Virus genome (UHGV): UHGV-0044882
Length of the DNA stretch: 16,020 bases
Direction: 5' to 3' (one strand)
Source: a virus
Position numbers and translations under genes: made by a program. This document shows, piece after piece, positions 3,955-15,814 of the stretch. Within the stretch, counting starts at the first letter, position 1; each line of letters starts with the position of its first letter. The notes under the pieces are model-generated. The model ran no database searches, was not told where the DNA came from, and worked only from the letters and a program-made list of their open reading frames with translations.

Positions 3955-4620
3955 TTAAAGATCCGGATCTACAGGCTCATGATATAGATTTACAGGGTAA
4001 TGAATAACTTCATAATTCAGTTGAGTAACTGTGTGAACATGCTGGCTATAAAAAACCAATGGATTTTTTTGACAAGGAGTAATCGTTATAGATTTACAGG
4101 CATGAATTCTTGGTGCGAATTTATCTAAATGCGCCTTCCAGTTGCTCATCATTTCATTACATTTTCTATTACGAGTATAGATAATCAATCCACCACTTGC
4201 GCTGTCTACGGTCCCTGTACTATATCGTTCAGTGAGTTGAGCATACCCTTTAAATAAATAACTATATGAAGATGTATGTTTTTTGGCTTCGCCATGCCAA
4301 ATATAATCCTTTAGTTTTATTGTAATATCACAATGTCCGCGCTGATTATTTTCATGAAATGCTTCAATGCCCATATCTTTATTTTTGATATTGGCCAATA
4401 AAATTAAAGTAAGCTGATCTTCTGTTAAATCGAAGTTTAACTTATTTGAATTCTCTTCTATTTCCTTTACAGCAGAATCAAGTTCAATCCTGACAAATTG
4501 TTTGAAATTATCGTACGATTGAAGTGCAAATCTAACACGAGTAATAGAAGCATTAATACGCTGAAGAAAAATATCATTATCAATATCAGCCAAACTCATT
4601 GCTGCAGACATTTTTAACAT
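3955..4620 (-). CDS. Hypothetical protein, third gene of the AT-rich operon; weak PD-(D/E)xK-like nuclease motif
   Basis: 221 aa, ATG 4620..4618 overlapping the stop of the upstream gene (ATGA), stop TAA 3957..3955. Segment GHCDITIKLKDYIWHGEAKKH has a D then E-x-K spacing compatible with a PD-(D/E)xK core; this is inference by eye, not a domain hit. Confidence 0.6.
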   Translation of the reverse strand: MLKMSAAMSLADIDNDIFLQRINASITRVRFALQSYDNFKQFVRIELDSAVKEIEENSNKLNFDLTEDQLTLILLANIKNKDMGIEAFHENNQRGHCDITIKLKDYIWHGEAKKHTSSYSYLFKGYAQLTERYSTGTVDSASGGLIIYTRNRKCNEMMSNWKAHLDKFAPRIHACKSITITPCQKNPLVFYSQHVHTVTQLNYEVIHYPVNLYHEPVDPDL

Positions 4621-5054
4621 CAGATAATATCCTTTGATTTAGATTCATCTAATGTAAAAAAAGGAAATACGAATGACTTATAGTCATACATAAGCTCCCC
4701 TGTAAATGGGTTTGCTAAAGATTGACTGATTTCCGCCTCAATAACTTCCTCTATTTCAAGTTCTACAGGGTCATGAAAATCATCAATGAACCAATAATTG
4801 AGTTTTAAAAAATCAACCTTTGGGCTACAAAGAATTTGTATGGCCGGATAGATAACCTGCTCATACGTTTCTGGCTGTAAAACCTTATTATAACCACCAG
4901 CTATATTAAATAAATCCTTATAACTTAAGGCTATATTTGATGATTTTTTAGCCCTTGCCTCGATTTCATCGTACAAATAGCAAGCTAACGCCCCAATTTC
5001 AGGGCGTTCTGCACACATTTCTTTGATGATCTTGGGCATATCACCATCCTTCAT
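4620..5054 (-). CDS. Hypothetical small acidic protein, middle gene of the AT-rich operon
   Basis: 144 aa from ATG 5054..5052 (track lists a TTG start at 5066). GGAG 7 nt upstream. Stop TGA overlaps the start of the downstream gene at 4620. No recognisable motif. Confidence 0.55.
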   Translation of the reverse strand: MKDGDMPKIIKEMCAERPEIGALACYLYDEIEARAKKSSNIALSYKDLFNIAGGYNKVLQPETYEQVIYPAIQILCSPKVDFLKLNYWFIDDFHDPVELEIEEVIEAEISQSLANPFTGELMYDYKSFVFPFFTLDESKSKDII

Positions 5055-5066
5055 TGCTGACTCCAA

Positions 5067-6173
5067 TTATAATATCAGCTTTGTGAGGGTTTCGAAATCA
5101 TCTTTGGATATACATTTACTTAATATAGCATAGTTAACAGGAGAGCAACTACTCCCTCCTAGATGCCTGCGGAGTGTTCCCGGAATGATAAGCTCTACGT
5201 TATCCGCTAATTGCAGTTTTGGATTATTTCTATCAACTCTAATTCCAATACGATACAAACCAATACTGCCTACTGCTTTGATGCCTTCCTTATTAAACAA
5301 ATCATCACGTAAGTCTTTAGTGGCCACATTTTTCTTTTCTTTATGCGTAGTCCCCTCATTCGTCAAAAATGACAAATCAAAGACTTTATAGCTTAATTTT
5401 GAATAAGGCAATGAATTTTGTTTGAAAATTAGCTCAATTAACGGATAAAAATCTTTTTCCGATGATTTAAATTCATAACCGACATGATTATACAATTCAC
5501 GAATAATGTTACTCTTTGCAAAAGTAACATTATCACCAATAATATTACCATTAGTATCTACCAAAACATGAATTTTATTAGTAACAGAGTCTAATATACA
5601 GACATCAAAACATTGTCGCTTTTCTTTTCGCTTTGCAATAATTTCATCAAACTGCTTGTATTGCGCAAGTGCTGACGGGGGAATTTTTTCTCTTACAACT
5701 AATTCTCTGACAGATGAAAAAACAAGTATTGACTGGGTGTTTTGAATAGAATAATTAACAAGTTCAGGTTGATTTTTTACAGCATTTTGCAATTGGACAT
5801 CATCAAGGATCGAATCAACCAATAATGATGGTTGATTCATCAAATTCCATTGAAAACTAAATCTGTCATTTAGTGTTTTAATTACACTATTATCTACAGT
5901 CAAACTAAATATTGCTTTTTCACCATAAACGACCTGACCAAAAATTAGGTCATTTACGTTTGCCATAATGCCATCAAACTTTTGCCTATCTTTACTTTTA
6001 AGATCAATGAGGCTTTCTAGTATTTTTTCGTTTGTTGCTTCACGCCCCCTACCTGTTGGCAGCCCTAAAGACGCAATAATTGGCCTTGCAACGTTCCATG
6101 TGAAACGTTCAGTTAAGGTCAAGATCGACTTTAACTCAGACTCAGAAAGCACTACTGGGACACTACCTGTCAT
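5067..6173 (-). CDS. Hypothetical protein, first and largest gene of the AT-rich operon
   Basis: 368 aa from ATG 6173..6171 (track lists GTG at 6182), AGGTG 7 nt upstream, stop TAA 5069..5067. No Walker A, HExxH or nucleotidyltransferase motif found by eye. Confidence 0.62.
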   Translation of the reverse strand: MTGSVPVVLSESELKSILTLTERFTWNVARPIIASLGLPTGRGREATNEKILESLIDLKSKDRQKFDGIMANVNDLIFGQVVYGEKAIFSLTVDNSVIKTLNDRFSFQWNLMNQPSLLVDSILDDVQLQNAVKNQPELVNYSIQNTQSILVFSSVRELVVREKIPPSALAQYKQFDEIIAKRKEKRQCFDVCILDSVTNKIHVLVDTNGNIIGDNVTFAKSNIIRELYNHVGYEFKSSEKDFYPLIELIFKQNSLPYSKLSYKVFDLSFLTNEGTTHKEKKNVATKDLRDDLFNKEGIKAVGSIGLYRIGIRVDRNNPKLQLADNVELIIPGTLRRHLGGSSCSPVNYAILSKCISKDDFETLTKLIL

Positions 6174-6322
6174 AACTTGCACCTAGTCATCCAAAAAGCA
6201 ATAAGAATTTGCTCTTGTCTTAATTTATCCTTCGATACCTAACAAATTACCTCAATGTTGAAAAAATTTGCAAGCCATTTGCTTCTAAAAAGCGACCTTA
6301 CTCAGAGTGTTACAAAACTAAG

Positions 6323-6351
6323 CGAGCGCGCGCTCGTATCCCCGCCACGCC
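6323..6351 (-). other. Candidate cos (cohesive end) site with adjacent GC palindrome
   Basis: Reverse complement of 6333..6351 is GGCGTGGCGGGGATACGAG. Its first 13 nt match the 186 cohesive end as I recall it (GGCGTGGCGGGGAAAGCAT); 14 of 19 match P2 (GGCGAGGCGGGGAAAGCAC). The G-rich strand is the one expected downstream of Q. A 14-bp palindrome cgagcgcgcgctcg sits at 6323..6336. Confidence 0.45.
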
Positions 6352-6372
6352 TGCCCGCTTTGTGTAGTGGTT

Positions 6373-6476
6373 TTCATGCAGGTGCATGACATAAGCAAAA
6401 GCCCGCCAGAACTGGCGGGCCTGCATCAAAACGATCCTCAAACGATCATGCGTTCTCATGCAGCATAGTCATGCAC
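6373..6476. repeat. Cluster of short iterated motifs beside the cos-like site
   Basis: TCATGCA(G/C) at 6374..6381, 6456..6463 and 6469..6476, plus an inverted copy at 6383..6390 forming a dyad with the first. AAACGATC direct repeat at 6429..6436 and 6440..6447. Confidence 0.4.
6396..6420 (-). terminator. Rho-independent terminator, minus strand
   Basis: Stem gcccgccag / ctggcgggc (6401..6420). On the minus strand it is followed by TTTTGCTTAT. Confidence 0.45.
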
Positions 6477-6637
6477 GGATGAGAGAAATGAATGCGCGTA
6501 TCCAAATGCCCGTTAGAAAAACGCAGATGAACTAAAAAAGCTTAAGGTCTACTATGAGCGAGAAACGGACATTTAATTTTCGAGTAGTGGAAATCGAAGC
6601 CAGTACCTGCCGGAGCCATAGTATCGAAACCACGAAC

Positions 6638-6664
6638 AATAAAAAGCCTGGAAATATCCAGGCT
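6638..6664 (-). terminator. Rho-independent terminator after the oxidoreductase gene
   Basis: Stem agcctgg / ccaggct with loop aaatat (6645..6664). On the minus strand it is followed by TTTTTAT, 36 nt after the stop at 6700. Confidence 0.6.
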
Positions 6665-6699
6665 GCGCAAGACTCATTTATAGAATGCTGCGGTAAGGA

Positions 6700-7692
6700 T
6701 TACTCAACGGTCACAACTATTTTGCCGACCTGTCCATTGGACTCCATATAGCGCTGGGCGTCTGCAATCTCTTCGAACGGGAACGTCTTATCGATGACCG
6801 GCTTCAGTTTGCCGACTCGCAAGCCTTCTGTGATAAAGGATTTAGCGCGCGCCATTTTTTCAGAGTCCGTCGTGATTTCAAACAGCTCATATCCACGCAG
6901 GGTGAGATGCTTACCGAGAATATCAAATACAGGCACAAGCATGTCACGGCTATCGAGCGCGCCGTACTGGAAAAACATACCCTGTGGTGCCATCACCTGC
7001 GTCAGTTTTGCCACGTCCGGCCCACCGACGGGATCAAAAACAATATGGGCACCTGCGCCATCTGTTGCACGACTGATTTCAGCAACCATATCCTGCTCCG
7101 CAGTAGCAATGACGGCGGCTGCGCCAGCTTTAAGGAGCATTTCGCTTTTTTCAGAGGTCCGTGTGAGTGCAATTGGGTTTGCACCCAGCATGTTAGCAAT
7201 CTGTATGGCAGCCAGACCCACGCTGCTTGATGCTGCGCGGATCACGACATTCTGACCAGCCTGAAGGTTGCCATACTCAACCAGCGCACCATAAGCGGTG
7301 ACATACATCATCCAGCTTGCGGCGGCTTCCTCGAATGAAAGGTTTTCAGGATGCTTTACGACAGCATGAACCGGTGCGTTGACCACTTCACCATACATGC
7401 CGTATTCATTAAACATAAATGAAGGGATCACGCTTACCCGATCTCCAGTGGTAAACTCATCTACATTCTCACCTACTGCCTGTACAACGCCGGCCGCTTC
7501 ATAACCAAGACGTGCCGGAAATTCCGGCTCAATAACATATTGGCCGTTGCGGTACATGATTTCTGCACGGTTGATACCTATCGCATGTACGCGGATCTGC
7601 ACTTCACCCGCTGTCGGTGCAGGCACCTGCACATCAACAACTTCCAGCACTTCCGGGCCACCGGTGCGGTTAAAGGTAATAACTTTAGACAT
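6700..7692 (-). CDS. MDR-superfamily NAD(P)H:quinone oxidoreductase-like (zinc-type alcohol dehydrogenase family)
   Basis: 330 aa from ATG 7692 (track TTG at 7698). N-terminus MSKVITFNRTGGPEVLEVVDV and a Gly-rich nucleotide-binding stretch AASSSVGLAAIQ resemble E. coli Qor-type quinone reductases. Confidence 0.85.
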   Translation of the reverse strand: MSKVITFNRTGGPEVLEVVDVQVPAPTAGEVQIRVHAIGINRAEIMYRNGQYVIEPEFPARLGYEAAGVVQAVGENVDEFTTGDRVSVIPSFMFNEYGMYGEVVNAPVHAVVKHPENLSFEEAAASWMMYVTAYGALVEYGNLQAGQNVVIRAASSSVGLAAIQIANMLGANPIALTRTSEKSEMLLKAGAAAVIATAEQDMVAEISRATDGAGAHIVFDPVGGPDVAKLTQVMAPQGMFFQYGALDSRDMLVPVFDILGKHLTLRGYELFEITTDSEKMARAKSFITEGLRVGKLKPVIDKTFPFEEIADAQRYMESNGQVGKIVVTVE

Positions 7693-7841
7693 ATTCAACT
7701 CTCTTCAGTTAAAGGCACACCTTCAGAATAATGCCGAAGGGATGCCCGAATCATTTGTGAACAATCTACGTTGTTACGAACACACCAGAAATAGCTGAGA
7801 GGGAACTTCAGTATTAATTATCCATTAACAATCCGCCTGCT

Positions 7842-8744
7842 TCAGCGGATCTGCGTGGCCAGAATATCACTGAACCAGTCGATAAAGACGCGCACTTTTG
7901 GAGAAAGGTAGCGCCTGTCGGGATACATCACTGACACGGGCTTTGACACCGATGGGTATTGCGGCAGAATCTCTTCAAGAGCGCCGGAAGCAATATGGGG
8001 AGCAACGGCATCATAGGTAGCCTGGATAATGCCCAGACCAGCCAGAGCACAAGAAAGCAGAATATCGGAATTATCAACCAGCAGGCTGCCCGCAGGACGT
8101 AGCGAAACAATGCTCCCGTCTTCGATAAACTTCCATTCCATGACGTCACGACTGTGGTCGCTAAAAAAGTTAATTGCCCGATGTTTATCCAGATCCGCAA
8201 GTGTTTCTGGCCGCTCATGCTGCTGCAGGTAAGACGGGGCTGCACAGGTAACCATCCGGATGTCACCAAGACGTCTGGATATAAAACTAGAATCTTGAAG
8301 CGCCCCCAGGCGGACAAGGCAATCTACGCCTTCCGTAATCAAATCAGTTTTTTTATCGGAAGAAACCAGCACAACTTCAATACCTGGATACAGTGCCTGA
8401 AAATGCCTGAGATTAGGGATCAATATGGAATGCGCCAGCGCCAGGGGCACATCAAGTCTCAGGCGTCCTCGCGGTGGAAGTGTCGGTGAAAAACTGGCCA
8501 TCATGTCATTAACTTCGGCCAGAACATGCCTAGCATGATGATAGAACTCATCCCCTTCAGCAGTAACGCTCAGCTTTCGGGTTGTGCGATAAATGAGTTT
8601 TACACCCAGATCATGCTCTATCTGCTGTATCGCTTTGCTCACAGTGGGGCGATGAATCTGAAGTACATCAGCAGCTTTCGTGAAGCTACCCTGCTCAACA
8701 ACCTGTATGAAAATATTTAGGTATTCAATCATGTTGGCATGCAC
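7842..8744 (-). CDS. LysR-family transcriptional regulator (LTTR)
   Basis: About 300 aa. N-terminal HTH signature VVEQGSFTKAADVL..PTVSKAIQQIEHDLGVKLIYRTTRKLSVTAEG followed by a co-inducer domain. Start is GTG 8744 (AGGTGA 5 nt upstream) or ATG 8732. Confidence 0.85.
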   Translation of the reverse strand: MHANMIEYLNIFIQVVEQGSFTKAADVLQIHRPTVSKAIQQIEHDLGVKLIYRTTRKLSVTAEGDEFYHHARHVLAEVNDMMASFSPTLPPRGRLRLDVPLALAHSILIPNLRHFQALYPGIEVVLVSSDKKTDLITEGVDCLVRLGALQDSSFISRRLGDIRMVTCAAPSYLQQHERPETLADLDKHRAINFFSDHSRDVMEWKFIEDGSIVSLRPAGSLLVDNSDILLSCALAGLGIIQATYDAVAPHIASGALEEILPQYPSVSKPVSVMYPDRRYLSPKVRVFIDWFSDILATQIR

Positions 8745-8966
8745 GTGCTCACCTGTTTTGTAGGCTGTTCAAAACCGACATTGTAAAGTAAACCATCCCA
8801 ACGACATTATTTCTTTTCGTTCAGATAAGGGCTTTCTGACTGTCACAATGTCCACTTCTGGCACAAAGCGGACGACCATTTTCAAATGGCCGTCGCATCT
8901 AACACCTCGTTTCACTCATTGTTCAACCTTACCCCCATCAGAAGGAATTCTTTCGGGGGCAACGTT

Positions 8967-9425: not shown

Positions 9426-9459
9426 ACTGTATATATAATCACTGTTTATATTTACAGTA
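9426..9459. promoter_or_regulatory. LexA operator (SOS box): one perfect box plus an overlapping imperfect box
   Basis: 9442..9457 ctgtttatatttacag is a perfect CTGT-N8-ACAG. 9426..9445 tactgtatatataatcactg matches the left half of the consensus, with the right half CAC instead of CAG. Confidence 0.7.
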
Positions 9460-9551: not shown

Positions 9552-11972
9552 TTAATACAGCTCCCGCCACTTATCATCTTCCTGCAAACGCTGGTTCCGA
9601 TAGAAGATACGCAGGCCTGCTCCTGACGGAATACTGCCGCCGCAAAGGAGTAAATCGACTTCTTTCTCGCTGCCATCAAATCCTCTGGACTTCAGTTCAT
9701 AGACGAGCTGCTGTCGCTGATGGTCTGTAATTCGCTGTTTGTAGTCTTTACGCCGTTTCGGTTTCACCTGGCGTAACCTTGCAGCCAGTTCCCGGCGCTC
9801 TTTTTTGCTCATACTGTGCAGGTAATCGTGCAACTCCTTGTCATCCATGCGGGTAATGTCCGTTCTGGTATCCCCATCAGCTGATTTGTCGTTCCCTTGT
9901 TGGCTCAAATTTTCAGCAAGGGGACAGTTATTGCCACGAGTCCGAGTCCAAGGGGCGCAAGCGCCCTGGTCGGCTGCCGCCTCCTGAACGTCAACGGCCT
10001 TACGAACCATTTTCCACTTCACGGCATGAGTGCAGATCTTGCCCTCTGCAATAGGTGACCAGATGCCATAAATACGAATGCCGTGATCGCCATAGACGGT
10101 CGGCTCTTCGTTGATTTCATAAGCAGTTCTGATGAGGTGATATTTGCGGGGAACCAGTACGCCACCCTGCTTCATGATGTAGGTGGCAAAACAACCAGCA
10201 TCAGCAGCAGCCAGAATGGCATCAAGGCGCGGGTTATCCAGTACCGGCGCACCTGCTTTTTTGTCCCCCTGTTGCCTTGCCGCCTGACCAGCCAGCAATC
10301 GCAGTTCACGGTAAGCCTGACGCCCCGGAATGCCAAAGAAGCGGAATTGCTGAACACGATGCAGAGACGCCCAGGCATTAACGTATTCAGCATTCTCACG
10401 CAGGGATTTCCCCGTTTCCTTGCTGATCTCGCCAGCCAGACCACGCCCGTCAATGTTCTTACTGATGTATTTCGCGATGTAGCTTGTTGGCGTACCTTTG
10501 CGCGGGTTAATCAACTCAGACTTAAAGCGCGGCCCAGTGTTATTGCCCAGCTCCTCGCGGTCTTCACGGATGGCAAACTTACGCAGTAATGCAGTGATGG
10601 TGCGGCGGTCTTTTTTGCGCATAAAACACAACAGGTGCCAGTGAACTGTACCGTCATGATGCGGCTCAGCCACCCGCACGCCATACCACCGCAATCCGGC
10701 TTTGTGCATCGCCTTACGAAATGCAGCAAACATGCCGACCAGATAATCACTGCTTTGTCTTACCGTCGCATTTGTCCAGGTTGGGTTGGGCCTGCCGTTA
10801 TTTAGCGTGGAATGGAAACGTGACGGACAGGTGATGGTGTAGAAAACGGCGCAGTCACCGCGCATTTCCGCGATAAGCTCCAGACCTTTAACACAGGCCA
10901 TCATCTCATTGCGGCGATGCGCCGGGTTGCTGCTGCTGGCGTTTACCACATCCTCCATGTCCAGCGTGTCGCCCTCTTCGTTCACCAGTTCATGAGAACG
11001 GAAAAACTCCAGCGACTTACGGCGCTGCTCACGTTTATGCATCACGGCTTCATAGCTGACATAAGGAGATGCTTTTTTGCTGACAAGGCAGACTGCACGC
11101 AACTGCTCTTCCCGCCATTCGCAACGCATCTTCCATAATTTCCGATACCACCAATCGGCGCACAACATACGCGCCAGCGAACCCGGAATGAGTTCATAGG
11201 GCACGGGTTTACGGCGGTTTCTTTTCCGACGGAGTTGCTCAAACGCAGGCGGGATGACATCCAGACGCAGGGTTTCCGCTGCCACCCTTTCCCATGTATT
11301 GCGGATTTCTTCTGGCTTAACGTCATCGGTGGCATACAAATCGCCACAAGCGGCATCAAGGCACATACTCATATGCGCAGCTACCAGGGTGGACAGGCGT
11401 TTCACCTGATCCTGACTCATTTCAGGCAGGATCAGCAGGCCGTCCAGCCCTTCATGGCTTGCCATAAAGCGAAAAGATGCAGATAGCTGACTGTCGCGTA
11501 CATGCTCCAGTCGTTCCAGACATGGCTTAATCGTCTCACGTAAATAGCGGGAATAAGCCTTTGGCCTGCCCAGGCTGCTGAAGTATTCAATACGTTGCAT
11601 CAGCGGCTTGCTGATATGGGAAGGCTGGGCGTTGACGTCCGCCAGAATGACCATATCCGGATTAAAACGCTGCTGCTCATGCGCCAGCTTTGCCCGACTA
11701 ATGAGCTTATCCTGTTCCATTTCGCGCTGGACAGGATCACGGGATTCATTAAAGAAATAACGCTCCCAGACCTGATCACTCAGCGCCTCACGGCGCAGCT
11801 GTTCCTGCTCGTTATCGGCAGCGTACAGAGTGATCAGGTTTGAAAGCGTAGAAACCGGCGCAACTTCCACCGGGTCCAGATAAGGGTTAATGGCCTTTTT
11901 CGGGCTGTTCCATGAGAACGATGCGGCAGCTTCGTTAAAGCCGCAGCAGTTGTTCATATCGGCATGACTCAT
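9552..11972 (-). CDS. A: Replication initiation protein gpA (rolling-circle nicking endonuclease)
   Basis: 806 aa at the position of P2/186 gene A. Contains a paired-tyrosine segment YIAKYISKN of the kind found in gpA-type initiators. ATG 11972 overlaps the Dam stop. Confidence 0.85.
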
Positions 11973-12826
11973 GCACGTACTCCGTACACGGCAGAACTAT
12001 CCACGCCACGCGAATAATCAAATCCCACCCAGCAGCGCGGCCCGGAAACAGCAATGATTTCTGTTGCTGATTTACCCTCGCCAGCTGCCACACCGATGCT
12101 GCGTTTTGCCTTGATGTAGTGGTGAGTAAAATTGCGATACAGCGAACGGATCAGGGATGTGTCACTGTTAGAAACAATGACCGGATGTCCTTCTGATGAC
12201 CGATGTTCAAGAACAGATGCCAGGTGATACTGGTCATCTTCAGTGAAGCCGTCAGTGTGATAGCCGGAAAACGTACCGTCATACGGCGGATCGCAATACA
12301 CCACATCCCCCGCCTTCAACATCGCCAGCGTTTCATCAAAGCTGGCGCAGATAAACGTTGCTCGCTGGGCCTTTTCTGCAAATGCGCGAATTTCTTTTTC
12401 AGGGAAATACGGATTTTTATAATTACCGTAGGGAATGTTGAAATGCCCGCTCTTGTTATAGCGACATAAACCACGGTAACCGTGACGATTGAGATACAGG
12501 AAATATACCGCTTTCATGAAATCAGTAATTTCAGTGGAGTAATTAAACTCCTGCCTTATGTTGTAATAAGCCACCTCCCTGTTTGCGATCTCAAATAAAA
12601 CTCTGGCGCGAGATATAAACGATTCACAATCAGCGGCAACCTTTTTATAGAGGTTTATTAAATCAGGATTAATATCCGCAACCAGATAGCTGGGGTAATC
12701 CGTCTCCATCATCACAGCACAGGAACCCGCGAAAGGTTCAACCAGTCGCGGGCCAGCAGGAAGGTGTTTTTTCAGTTCGGACATAATGGCGGTTTTATTT
12801 CCCGCCCATTTCAGGATGGTGCTCAT
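11969..12826 (-). CDS. dam: Dam-type DNA N6-adenine methyltransferase (orphan)
   Basis: 285 aa from ATG 12826 (the track ORF starts 20 codons upstream). Motifs [16 protein letters not shown] (AdoMet site), [15 protein letters not shown] and catalytic DPPY align with E. coli Dam as recalled. GGAGGTG SD upstream. Confidence 0.9.
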
Positions 12827-13050
12827 ACAGCACCTCCGTTGTAATGTTTGCCTTTCAGCTCTGCGATTTCCTGGCAGGTAATGCAAAGATGCACTCCCGG
12901 AATGGCGCGGCGTCGTGCTGGCGGAATTGGCGCTTCACATTCAATACAAAGCACGCGAGACACGCCCGGTGTTTTGGCACGGGCAGCACGAATATGGCGC
13001 TGGCGTTCTTCTTCAACGCGCTGCTGTACGAGATCCATTGCATCAGCCAT
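12823..13050 (-). CDS. TraR/DksA-family C4-type zinc-finger protein
   Basis: 75 aa with CIECEAPIP and CITCQ (CxxC-N17-CxxC), typical of phage and plasmid TraR-like proteins. Stop overlaps the Dam ATG; start overlaps the stop of the upstream ORF. Confidence 0.75.
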   Translation of the reverse strand: MADAMDLVQQRVEEERQRHIRAARAKTPGVSRVLCIECEAPIPPARRRAIPGVHLCITCQEIAELKGKHYNGGAV

Positions 13051-13283
13051 TAGTGGATCTCCTGCGCTTCGTTCTGGATTGCTTCAGCAGTTACACGCAG
13101 TAGTTCTGCCGCTTCGACGTGGTTTAGCTGGCGGGATGTGATATGACACGCCAGGCTATCAAGGCGAGCTGCCATTGCTTCTGCCCTTGCCCGGCGTTCT
13201 TCCAGACGAGCCTCTGTCAGTAAAATATTAAGCCCTGCGTCATCCGGTCCGGTTTTAGTCGTGAGGGTTTCAATATTACGCAT
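13050..13283 (-). CDS. Hypothetical early-operon protein
   Basis: 77 aa from ATG 13283 (track TTG at 13289), SD AGGAGA 8 nt upstream. Stop overlaps the TraR-like start. No recognisable motif. Confidence 0.5.
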   Translation of the reverse strand: MRNIETLTTKTGPDDAGLNILLTEARLEERRARAEAMAARLDSLACHITSRQLNHVEAAELLRVTAEAIQNEAQEIH

Positions 13284-13350
13284 AATCAATTCTCCTGAAT
13301 TTAGATAAAGGGATGTCCGGCGGGTTTACGCCATTAATTTCATTAGTTGG

Positions 13351-13692
13351 TTAATTCGGCATGGTTAGCCGTCTGGGAAATAAGCTCACCACTGCACGAA
13401 AATGATTCATTGCTTTAATCAGCTCCCGCTTTTCGTCAGTGGTCAGCTCATTAATGCTGATGCTATGACGTTCAGCTGGAATTTTTGCCATAAAGAATAT
13501 GGCAGCCAGTGCCCGTTTATTTTGTTCATTATTGATATCCCGTGGATCACGCATATCTTTAATAAACCGCTCAAGCTCTGACTCAATATTCAGGCCAAAA
13601 ACTTTCGCCCTTAACTCCGCAATGTGATTAAGTCCATTCAGGCGTTCACCGGGGCTTAATGGAACAGTTGCTGCAGCGCCATTAATTGCCAT
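13351..13692 (-). CDS. Hypothetical early-operon protein
   Basis: 113 aa, ATG 13692 with a G-rich SD upstream. No recognisable motif. Confidence 0.5.
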   Translation of the reverse strand: MAINGAAATVPLSPGERLNGLNHIAELRAKVFGLNIESELERFIKDMRDPRDINNEQNKRALAAIFFMAKIPAERHSISINELTTDEKRELIKAMNHFRAVVSLFPRRLTMPN

Positions 13693-14974: not shown

Positions 14975-15009
14975 GGTTCAACTTTAAGATCGCTTTTGGA
15001 ATCTGTCAA
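14975..15009 (-). promoter_or_regulatory. Candidate early lytic promoter (pR/Pe equivalent)
   Basis: Minus strand: -35 TTGACA (15009..15004), 17-nt spacer, -10 TAAAGT (14986..14981). Sits 28 bp upstream of the cI start and points toward apl, as in the 186 face-to-face switch. Confidence 0.4.
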
Positions 15010-15036: not shown

Positions 15037-15606
15037 GTGGATTTCAATAGCGGCGGTAAGAAAGCCATAGAACGTTTAGTTGAAGCATATGGGTTCGGTA
15101 CCCGTCAGGCTCTCTGTGATCATTTAGGTGTTTCTAAGAGCACCATGGCAACGCGCTATATGCGTGATATTTTTCCAGCAGATTGGGTAATCCAGTGCGC
15201 CCTTGAAACGGGCACCTCGCTTAATTGGCTAACAACAGGGCATGGTTCAAAGCAAGCATCAGCAAATACAAATACTATGGAAGTTGCTAAATATGTATTA
15301 TCTGATGGGGCCTTGTGTGAAGACGGTTTTTATATTTTCGATAGGGAATTTCTACCGTCGGCATTCAAGAATATTTTTGCAATCACAGATAATAATTCTG
15401 AATTTATTTGTGATAAGGAATTTGATGATATACGTGATGGTAAATGGGTAATAAGTATTGATGGCGAAATAACGATCCGTGACATTACTCGTTTACCCGG
15501 TGGAAGAATCTTCGTCGAGGGTGGAAACAGAGCCTTCGAATGCAAGATAGAAGACATTGAAATAATTGGTAAAATTATAAGTTTAACAGTCAAGTATGTT
15601 AAATAG
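15037..15606 (+). CDS. cI: CI-type immunity repressor (186 CI family)
   Basis: 189 aa from GTG 15037 with GGAGGA 4 nt upstream (the longest ORF starts at GTG 14950). N-terminal HTH region [23 protein letters not shown] and a C-terminal oligomerisation-type domain. Length is close to 186 CI (192 aa). Confidence 0.72.
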
Positions 15607-15622
15607 TACCGGGAGGAAAACT

Positions 15623-15814
15623 ATGCTTGGTAAGGTATTTTTTGTGGTTTTGTCATGTTCTTTGTTATTAAACCCACTAACTACCTATGCTAGAAATTAT
15701 CCCTGTTCAGGGAAAAAGGGAGGTGTTTCTCACTGTACCTCAGATGGCAAATTTGTTTGCAATGATGGAACTATTAGTAAATCCAAAAAAATCTGTACTA
15801 AAAACTCACGATAA
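15623..15814 (+). CDS. Small secreted Cys- and Lys-rich peptide (predicted signal peptide)
   Basis: 63 aa from ATG 15623 with GGAGGA upstream. Hydrophobic N-terminus [23 protein letters not shown], then a roughly 40-aa mature part with 4 Cys. AT-rich. It lies where int directly follows cI in 186. Confidence 0.45.

Follow-up and report, generated by a model that had tools for sequence, protein, structure and literature searches.

Genes annotated as "Dam DNA adenine methylase" or "DNA adenine methylase" are found in Peduoviridae such as Escherichia phage Cartapus (gp42, Elveevirus), Klebsiella phages KP12 and 4LV2017, and an E. coli prophage (WP_000104157.1). What phage Dam enzymes do is still poorly understood (PMC7556043), and our literature searches found no experimentally characterised alpha-class Dam from the Peduoviridae.

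The 16,020-nucleotide stretch of viral DNA that we analysed, called the window below, carries a gene of this kind. The Cartapus, KP12, 4LV2017 and WP_000104157.1 loci are 97-99.8% identical to it at the nucleotide level over a block encoding DUF2732, TraR-like, Dam and gpA proteins, with the same gene order and overlapping coordinates. Some E. coli relatives have an extra DUF3850 gene inside the matched block that is absent from the block in the window, and the Dam-bearing relatives differ from the window in their immunity region and cargo. At a coverage of at least 80%, searches recovered the same block, 1.6 kb of it, from 1230 of 5426 complete E. coli genomes, 58 phage records and at least 599 IMG/VR contigs, and RefSeq already annotates it with the same genes and layout. 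The Dam gene just upstream of gene A is a standard, annotated feature of many E. coli and Klebsiella P2/186-family prophages, and there is nothing new in its presence. The locus carries little weight as a discovery: roughly one complete E. coli genome in four, and many phages of Klebsiella and Salmonella, have this gene, its family and its position as routine annotation. Many P2-family phages of Dam+ hosts nevertheless carry a second GATC methylase, and the gene is so common that its role bears on a large share of enterobacterial genomes.

A P2-family early operon and its methylase

The window represents a 186-like prophage of the P2 family (Peduoviridae). It is 95-98% identical to Peduoviridae phages, and includes P2-type gpO, gpP and gpQ head genes as well as cos homology at 6339-6390. 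Genes for Cox-like, CII, DUF5347, DUF2732, TraR-like, Dam and gpA proteins share one strand and follow a pR-like promoter that faces CI (Table 1). This promoter matches the consensus at 10 of 12 positions and is located between the Cox-like gene and CI, a position corresponding to that of pR in 186. The region is collinear with the P2 and 186 records, and its operon with the annotated early operon of 186. The order CI/Cox, CII, DUF2732, TraR-like and gpA, together with the head genes and cos, identifies an early replication operon of the Peduoviridae.

Table 1. Predicted genes, gene junctions and control elements of the early operon, in window coordinates
Feature	Coordinates	Strand	Basis
Predicted early lytic (pR-like) promoter for cox-cII-...-DUF2732-traR-dam-A	14981..15009	minus	TTGACA-17-TAAAGT, consensus match only
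DUF2732 protein, 77 aa, counterpart of P2 orf80, first in the overlapped chain	13050..13283	minus	PF10809 2.9e-29, phrog_128
DUF2732 stop / TraR-like start overlap, TAATG, 1 nt, CACTAATGG	13048..13052	minus	read from sequence
TraR/DksA-family C4 zinc-finger protein, 75 aa, counterpart of P2 orf82	12823..13050	minus	PF01258 2.3e-10, TIGR02419, phrog_54
TraR-like stop / dam start overlap, ATGA, GTATGAGC	12823..12826	minus	read from sequence
Dam-family (alpha-class, D12) N6-adenine DNA methyltransferase, 285 aa, predicted GATC specificity	11969..12826	minus	PF02086, TIGR00571, 2G1P/4GOL matches
Predicted RNA hairpin GUGUACG-GAGUA-CGUGCAU	11971..11989	minus	ViennaRNA, single-sequence prediction
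dam stop TGA / gene A start ATG overlap, ATGA, GCATGAGT	11969..11972	minus	read from sequence
Replication endonuclease gpA, 806 aa, rolling-circle initiator	9552..11972	minus	PF05840 2e-127, phrog_91

The methylase had been predicted to be of the Dam type, and profile and structure matches agree on this. The entire PF02086 profile (positions 1-253 of 253) matches the protein at 1e-76 (258.5 bits, with a cut-off of 22), the TIGR00571 "dam" model scores 321.9 bits (cut-off 114.85), and the best PADLOC model is "orphan methyltransferase" (3e-111). E. coli Dam (EcoDam) structures 2G1P and 4GOL align with residues 4-263 at 2e-73. The motifs occur in the order of an AdoMet-binding, FxGxG-type EPFAGS (30-35), a recognition hairpin region (116-136) and a catalytic DPPY (179-182). 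We place the start of dam at the ATG at 12826; a longer, TTG-initiated ORF from 12886 is unsupported by homologues or by the RefSeq annotation of a 99.8% identical locus.

EcoDam reads GATC through residues K9, Y119, N120, L122, R124, P134 and Y138, among which R124 has been shown to enforce the fourth base pair (PMC4417163). Six of the seven are identical in the phage enzyme (K6, Y117, L120, R122, P132 and Y136), so that the base-contact and intercalating residues K9, Y119, L122, R124, P134 and Y138 are all kept, including the R124 equivalent, R122. To judge from these residues, the enzyme almost certainly methylates GATC. The seventh contact, N120, is replaced by R118, and at a further aligned position R137 of EcoDam corresponds to N135. 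The protein also scores 288.1 bits against NF008152, the NCBIfam equivalog for the housekeeping enterobacterial Dam, below its 441-bit cut-off. It is a phage-borne paralogue rather than an orthologue of the host Dam, and the two substitutions and the low equivalog score mean that a specificity identical to that of the host enzyme is not guaranteed.

The original prediction described this methylase as lacking an adjacent restriction partner, and within the window that description is borne out. Neither neighbour of dam, the TraR-like gene or gene A, encodes a restriction nuclease, and scans of ORFs of at least 60 aa with Pfam, PADLOC, NCBIfam and PHROGs profiles detected no restriction enzyme in any part of the 16 kb, which covers only a portion of the prophage and includes three cargo ORFs, at 3955-6182, that have no function match. 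A PDB sequence search with the 371-aa cargo ORF likewise did not find a restriction partner. With no restriction endonuclease detected next to it or nearby in the window, the protein fits the description of an orphan methyltransferase.

The overlapped gene chain and the start of gene A

The genes for DUF2732, the TraR/DksA zinc-finger protein, Dam and gpA form a head-to-tail chain on the minus strand, with junctions read directly from the sequence. The coordinates and gene identities of the original prediction are correct, as is the overlap of the dam frame with gene A inside the early lytic (replication) operon. The DUF2732 gene starts at ATG 13283, which is preceded by AGGAGA, and a TTG at 13289 was set aside in its favour. 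The TraR-like protein carries a CxxC...CxxC pattern (Cys 35, 38, 56 and 59) and scores 66.7 bits against TIGR02419 (cut-off 59.7). Shine-Dalgarno motifs (GGAGAT, GGAGGT and GGAG) lie 7-8 nt ahead of the TraR-like, dam and A start codons, respectively. The chain is co-directional, with -1 and -4 overlaps and Shine-Dalgarno motifs inside the upstream genes, and has the layout of termination-reinitiation pairs.

The overlaps are stable among relatives. The dam/A ATGA is identical in all 70 ungapped IMG/VR relatives, and the TraR-like/dam ATGA in 69 of the 70, the remaining one having TTGA. Stop/start overlaps are also present in Gegavirus (73% amino acid identity), Seongnamvirus (48%) and Novemvirus, with GTGA or ATGA at the dam/A junction in Gegavirus and Seongnamvirus relatives, and the 1-nt DUF2732/TraR-like overlap is likewise annotated in P2 and 186. 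The arrangement that drew attention to the locus is real, but a very common prophage family has this layout conserved among its members, and it is not peculiar to this phage. Overlaps of -4 and -1 are the commonest layout of co-directional prokaryotic gene pairs, and for ATGA and TGATG pairs in general coupling has been shown experimentally (PMC6728339). Other overlapping or abutting pairs occur in the window itself (gpP/gpQ and orf221/orf148/orf371). Given how common such overlaps are, and these further pairs, the chain is statistically unremarkable.

The slot just upstream of A is occupied by different genes in different relatives: DUF5405 in P2, the PAPS-reductase-like orf84 in 186, and a small ORF in Novemvirus. 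In every relative compared, the slot gene overlaps A, including orf83/A of P2 and orf84/A of 186, which makes the overlap a property of the slot and not of Dam. According to the 186 record, translation of the A protein appears to need translation through the end of orf84, and by analogy translation of A in the window may depend on that of dam. The 1- and 4-nt overlaps would permit termination-reinitiation, so that how much gpA is made, and when, would depend on translation of the upstream gene.

The final codons of dam are predicted to form a small hairpin with the start codon of gene A, pairing its A and U, which would sequester this start codon. The ViennaRNA probability of the AUG being unpaired is 0.13 for gpA, compared with 1.00 for dam, 0.81 for traR and 0.75 for DUF2732, and the fold of the 151-nt dam/A junction has a z-score of only -1.9. 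Predictions for Gegavirus, Novemvirus and 186 likewise show a paired A start codon, but those for the ESSI-2 and P2 junctions do not. Covariation is not available for this hairpin among 80 IMG/VR relatives, which are 98-100% identical and have their variants in the loop or downstream, and the DNA of the dam/A, orf84/A and orf83/A junctions is too divergent for an informative alignment.

GATC sites and the role of the enzyme

GATC occurs 53 times in the window, where 56 +/- 6.8 sites are expected, and is neither avoided, enriched nor clustered, a count consistent with reliance on methylation rather than loss of sites. Its density is uniform across gene A, dam and the early operon; gene A has one site per 303 bp, and the window one per 302 bp.

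We consider it about 80% probable that this is an ordinary phage Dam, third in the DUF2732-TraR-Dam-gpA block, whose CI-repressed, early co-expression with gpA yields fully GATC-methylated, restriction-protected phage DNA. The pR-like promoter would transcribe the block, which closes the early lytic operon. Because the operon is placed under a predicted CI-repressed pR, Dam would be made only after infection or induction, along with gpA, and its expression is presumably confined to the lytic cycle. The phage enzyme could add activity while phage replication outpaces the small host Dam pool, so that packaged genomes would be fully methylated at GATC and, in the next host, would resist enzymes cutting only unmethylated GATC. 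Such DNA would also not look hemimethylated or unmethylated to MutH or SeqA. Among the three roles that the original prediction offered, protection of progeny DNA from GATC-directed restriction appears the most plausible. Two points speak against this explanation: the usual hosts are Dam+, so that a second Dam would be of uncertain benefit, and P2 and 186 do well without one.

A regulatory enzyme, exerting epigenetic control over a phage promoter, repressor binding, origin nicking by gpA or cos cutting, would have precedents in P1 pac cleavage, Mu mom and IS10, and dam and the replication initiator gene are translated together. Some GATC sites are suitably placed: one (14988-14991) falls within the predicted pR spacer, a single base ahead of the -10 hexamer, and those at 6433 and 6444 are about 50-100 bp from the cos homology. 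We nonetheless regard such a function as unlikely. Only 5 of 82 Dam-carrying relatives share the switch region of the window, so Dam is not tied to this promoter, and P2, which has no dam gene, has a GATC in its Pe/O1 region; the spacer site was accordingly abandoned as a general Dam-linked switch. Aligning gpA with its P2 and 186 counterparts, for which ori positions are annotated, places the homologue of the ori nick at about codon 677 of gpA (~9944). This homologue contains no GATC, the nearest being at 10035 and 10085, about 90 and 140 bp away, and for this reason a GATC at the replication origin was dropped as a candidate. By inspection, the final 120 bases at the right ends of P2 and 186 also contain none, the density in gene A is average, the overall count is that expected by chance, and host Dam would methylate these sites anyway. 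The idea that the methylase tunes the phage's own replication consequently finds no support in the sequence. A link between Dam and gpA in function as well as in translation, in which GATC methylation gates rolling-circle initiation or cos cutting and Dam serves as a timer for replication or packaging instead of a protective enzyme, is very improbable. A timer could account for the position-specific coupling and for a clade-specific 22-aa C-terminal tail; with no GATC at the ori homologue and no GATC clustering, the sequence gives it no positive support.

An effect on the host is somewhat less likely than regulation of the phage. Excess Dam, made in lytic growth or through leaky expression, could inactivate methyl-directed mismatch repair, prevent SeqA from sequestering oriC, or methylate normally protected GATC sites and thereby alter host expression; an excess of Dam is known to be mutagenic and to affect phase-variable loci. 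Among neighbouring early genes in 186-type phages, some do act on the host (the 186 record gives fil and dhr), and the TraR/DksA-like protein probably targets RNA polymerase. The suggestion that the methylase alters host gene expression fares poorly for a lysogen, where a gene downstream of the predicted CI-repressed pR is not expected to be expressed and where the usual hosts already methylate GATC, and effects within a single lytic cycle would bring little obvious benefit. In the one methylome study found, a prophage Dam homologue of E. coli EC958 was not transcribed in the lysogen (PMC4659465), which also weighs against action on the host if it is the same protein as that of the window. An attempt to link the window Dam to M.EcoMIV of EC958 (PMC4659465) was given up, since the P2-like prophage located in that strain, at 950-988 kb, has no dam gene. 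There is only a slight chance that the methylase is a passenger of little selective value in a permissive slot, where any translated ORF ending at the start of A would deliver ribosomes. The unrelated slot genes of relatives, all overlapping A, fit this explanation, as does the 186 record, in which slot genes are annotated "not essential" and yet A needs translation to the end of orf84. However, the Dam ORF is intact, with its catalytic and DNA-contact motifs kept, in hundreds of prophages and in genera at 44-73% amino acid identity, which argues for purifying selection on the enzyme.

Comparison with known methylases and with 186

EcoDam (PDB 2G1P) shares its fold family, motif order and DPPY with the phage methylase, and both are orphan enzymes. 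The phage protein is five residues shorter in the loop that follows DPPY and ends in the 22-aa tail, which EcoDam lacks. The phage gene resides in a repressed phage operon, whereas EcoDam is encoded in the host dam operon.

The orf84-A junction of 186 (Eganvirus ev186) has the same operon position, the same ATGA overlap with A and a similarly paired predicted A start. The gene order of 186 is DUF2732, TraR-like, slot genes and A, and the slot genes encode a DnaQ-like exonuclease, a DUF5405 protein and a PAPS-reductase-like protein but no methylase. A further difference is the terminator tM1 of 186; a consensus scan of the window listed neither a 186-style tM1 nor any other site resembling a terminator close to where gene A starts.

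More distant counterparts are P1 Dmt, which is 36% identical over 91% of the window protein, and T4 Dam, whose structures match that protein at 5e-18. In P1, the methylase forms one portion of a larger, bifunctional protein and has a link to pac cutting. Like the Dam of the window, both are phage GATC methylases without a restriction partner, but they belong to other phage families and have different genomic contexts and regulation.

Organization and distribution of the dam block

Four consecutive minus-strand genes, recognized from the ORF listing and by direct reading of the sequence, encode a DUF2732 protein, a TraR/DksA-type zinc-finger protein, a DNA adenine methyltransferase (Dam) and the replication endonuclease gpA. 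Judged by sequence similarity, these family assignments are unambiguous, and they bear out the prediction of a Dam-type methylase. As originally predicted, the dam stop codon overlaps the start of A (GCA-TGA/ATG-AGT), the dam start overlaps the stop of the TraR-like gene (GTA-TGA/ATG-AGC), each by 4 nucleotides as ATGA, and the TraR-like gene overlaps the DUF2732 gene by 1 nucleotide (CAC-TAATG-GCT). A Shine-Dalgarno-like GGAG motif precedes each start. The next gene upstream, DUF5347 (13692-13351), is separated from the chain by 67 nucleotides, and therefore "four coupled genes" is a fitting description.

Features in the window
Feature	Position	Strand	Assignment or context
DUF2732 protein, 77 aa	ATG 13283, stop 13050-13052	minus	PF10809
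TraR/DksA-type zinc-finger protein, 75 aa	ATG 13050, stop 12823-12825	minus	PF01258, TIGR02419
Dam methyltransferase, 285 aa	ATG 12826, stop 11969-11971	minus	PF02086 (1e-76), TIGR00571 (322 bits)
gpA replication endonuclease, 806 aa	ATG 11972, end 9552	minus	PF05840 (2e-127)
62-aa ORF	9399-9211	minus	phrog_698, downstream of LexA-box-like palindrome
DinI/Tum-like gene	9245-8967	minus	downstream of LexA-box-like palindrome
ORFs of oxidoreductase/LysR segment	6700-7698 and 7842-8744	minus
Three hypothetical ORFs (221, 148, 371 aa)	3955-6182	minus	phrog_9664, phrog_11490, phrog_12777
72-aa Cys-rich protein	15596-15814	plus	phrog_6000, just downstream of CI

A search with the 1.6-kb block at 11800-13400 recovered it from 1230 of the 5426 complete E. 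coli genomes when coverage of at least 80% was required; most of these matches have 95-99% identity. It was also recovered from 58 phage records and from at least 599 IMG/VR contigs, the best 80 of which show 98-100% protein identity. RefSeq labels the E. coli genes as DUF2732 family protein, TraR/DksA family transcriptional regulator, DNA adenine methylase and replication endonuclease. Dam also lies directly upstream of gpA, with a 4-nucleotide overlap, in more distant genera such as Gegavirus (73% amino acid identity) and Seongnamvirus (48%); in Novemvirus (44%) one small ORF separates them. This prevalence, and the same layout in distant Peduoviridae genera, mean that the arrangement is already known and routinely annotated, and the original reading of it is correct. 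In some E. coli relatives the match is in two pieces, ~300 bp longer than the query, and an extra DUF3850-domain gene is listed beneath it. The DUF3850 gene of P2 (orf91) instead follows gene A, a difference in placement that shows module shuffling around the Dam slot.

Phage context and accessory genes

Upstream of the chain are a CII-like activator, a Cox/Apl-like excisionase-repressor and a divergent 186-type CI repressor, and on its opposite side are P2-type gpO, gpP and gpQ. A cos region, with GGCGTGGCGGGGATACGA on the minus strand, was placed at about 6339-6390 (interval 6334-6390) from its similarity to the P2 and 186 right ends (E = 1e-4 for either). The window is therefore a circularly permuted (prophage-order) segment belonging to a 186-like phage within the Peduoviridae. 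The cos match lies ~2.4 kb from the portal gene, which cos adjoins in P2. The closest named phages, Escherichia phage Cartapus (Elveevirus) and several Klebsiella phages, share 97-98% identity across the block.

Between gpA/DinI and cos, where P2 has its old/tin hotspot, 6552-8862 (minus strand) carries an NAD(P)H quinone oxidoreductase of the PIG3-type Zn-ADH family and a LysR-family regulator. Loci on the chromosomes of Klebsiella sp., Scandinavium, Erwinia, Rosenbergiella and Pseudescherichia, outside any prophage, match this 2.3-kb segment at 90-94% identity, and the phage collection contains no match to it. The segment resembles a host metabolic module acquired recently, which would be unusual for this hotspot. 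None of the complete E. coli genomes spans 80% or more of the cargo region.

Just downstream of gpA is a perfect LexA-box-like palindrome, CTGTTTATATTTACAG (9442-9457). Its arrangement with the 62-aa ORF and the DinI/Tum-like gene mirrors the SOS-controlled p95-tum antirepressor operon of 186, and so the prophage is probably SOS-inducible. The 72-aa Cys-rich protein has an apparently hydrophobic, signal-peptide-like N-terminus and may be a product of lysogenic conversion; at this position, between CI and the integrase, RefSeq annotates a "hypothetical protein" in a related E. coli prophage.

Specificity and role of the methylase

The window Dam aligns with E. coli Dam (EcoDam) across residues 4-263 (2e-73). 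In EcoDam, R124 contacts the fourth base pair, Y119 intercalates, L122 and P134 contact the inner base pairs, N120 makes a base hydrogen bond, and K9 and Y138 contact the first base pair (Horton and colleagues, PMC4417163). All are retained (K6, Y117, L120, R122, P132 and Y136) except N120, which is replaced by R118, and the catalytic motif DPPY occupies residues 179-182; specificity for GATC is therefore very likely. The protein scores 288 bits, below the 441-bit NCBI equivalog threshold for housekeeping Dam, and has a 22-aa C-terminal tail (residues 264-285; 11972-12037) that extends beyond the alignable region and is absent from EcoDam. The enzyme is a phage paralogue and not a host gene captured recently. 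A tail similar to that of the window Dam (W-GFD...VRA) occurs in the Gegavirus homologue, and none in that of ESSI-2.

The predicted absence of an adjacent restriction partner holds: neither neighbour, TraR-like or gpA, is a nuclease partner, and the best PADLOC model is "orphan methyltransferase" (3e-111). No restriction enzyme family was detected among the cargo ORFs of the window, three of which, at 3955-6182, lack functional assignment. These abut or overlap, are low in GC (31-35%) and lie in a variable hotspot of their own, bounded by cos and the portal gene; some P2-like prophages of E. coli carry them as "hypothetical proteins". Pfam gave nothing convincing (only a sub-threshold Rep3_C match for the 221-aa ORF), PADLOC and NCBIfam gave no match, and searching PDB sequences with the 371-aa ORF likewise found nothing. 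In location and composition the three ORFs are consistent with an uncharacterised anti-phage cassette.

As in the early operon of 186, dam lies downstream of a pR-like promoter (TTGACA-17-TAAAGT, 15009-14981) facing CI, and therefore should be silent in lysogens, with Dam made alongside gpA upon induction or infection. The window contains 53 GATC sites (56 +/- 6.8 expected), at uniform density across gene A, dam and the early operon, and the homologue of the P2/186 ori nick site (~9944) has none; there is thus no sign of avoidance or of oriC-like clustering. One GATC (14988-14991), in the predicted pR spacer one base upstream of the -10 hexamer, is a weak hint of a regulatory role; it is kept in the five relatives with the same immunity region. 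However, only 5 of 82 Dam-carrying relatives have this switch region, and a GATC is also present in the Pe/O1 region of P2, which lacks dam. On the reading with the best support, Dam would top up GATC methylation on fast-replicating phage DNA, so that packaged genomes would be fully modified. Our literature search found no experimental study of the Peduoviridae alpha-class Dam group. The original interpretation is partly upheld: the view of an orphan Dam within the replication operon, overlapping A, stands, but of the three suggested roles (protection against GATC-sensitive restriction, altered host gene expression, tuning of phage replication) two find no support in the sequence.

Predicted translational coupling upstream of gene A

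RNA folding places the A start codon in a predicted hairpin (GUGUACG-GAGUA-CGUGCAU) with the last dam codons and leaves it mostly paired (P(unpaired) 0.13), whereas the dam, traR and DUF2732 starts are predicted to be open (1.00, 0.81 and 0.75). The codons of the Dam tail also make up this hairpin and the Shine-Dalgarno motif of A, and the constraint on them may be on RNA, protein or both. The start codon of A is predicted to be paired in Gegavirus, Novemvirus and 186 as well, and not in ESSI-2 or P2, although the P2 Shine-Dalgarno motif is paired. The predicted pairing is consistent with coupling by termination-reinitiation, a mechanism demonstrated by experiment for ATGA/TGATG pairs in general (PMC6728339); coupling through this hairpin stays a prediction because the relatives are too alike to yield covariation.

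Comparable chains precede A in P2 and 186. That of P2 comprises orf80 (DUF2732), orf81, orf82 (TraR-like), orf83 and A, with overlaps of 1, 1, 4 and 11 nucleotides, and that of 186 comprises DUF2732, TraR-like, exonuclease, DUF5405, orf84 and A, with overlaps of 1, 4, 4, 4 and 4; the 186 record notes that translation of the A protein appears to need translation to the end of orf84. Across these phages the occupant before A differs while an overlap with A is constant, which indicates that coupling is a property of the slot and not of Dam.
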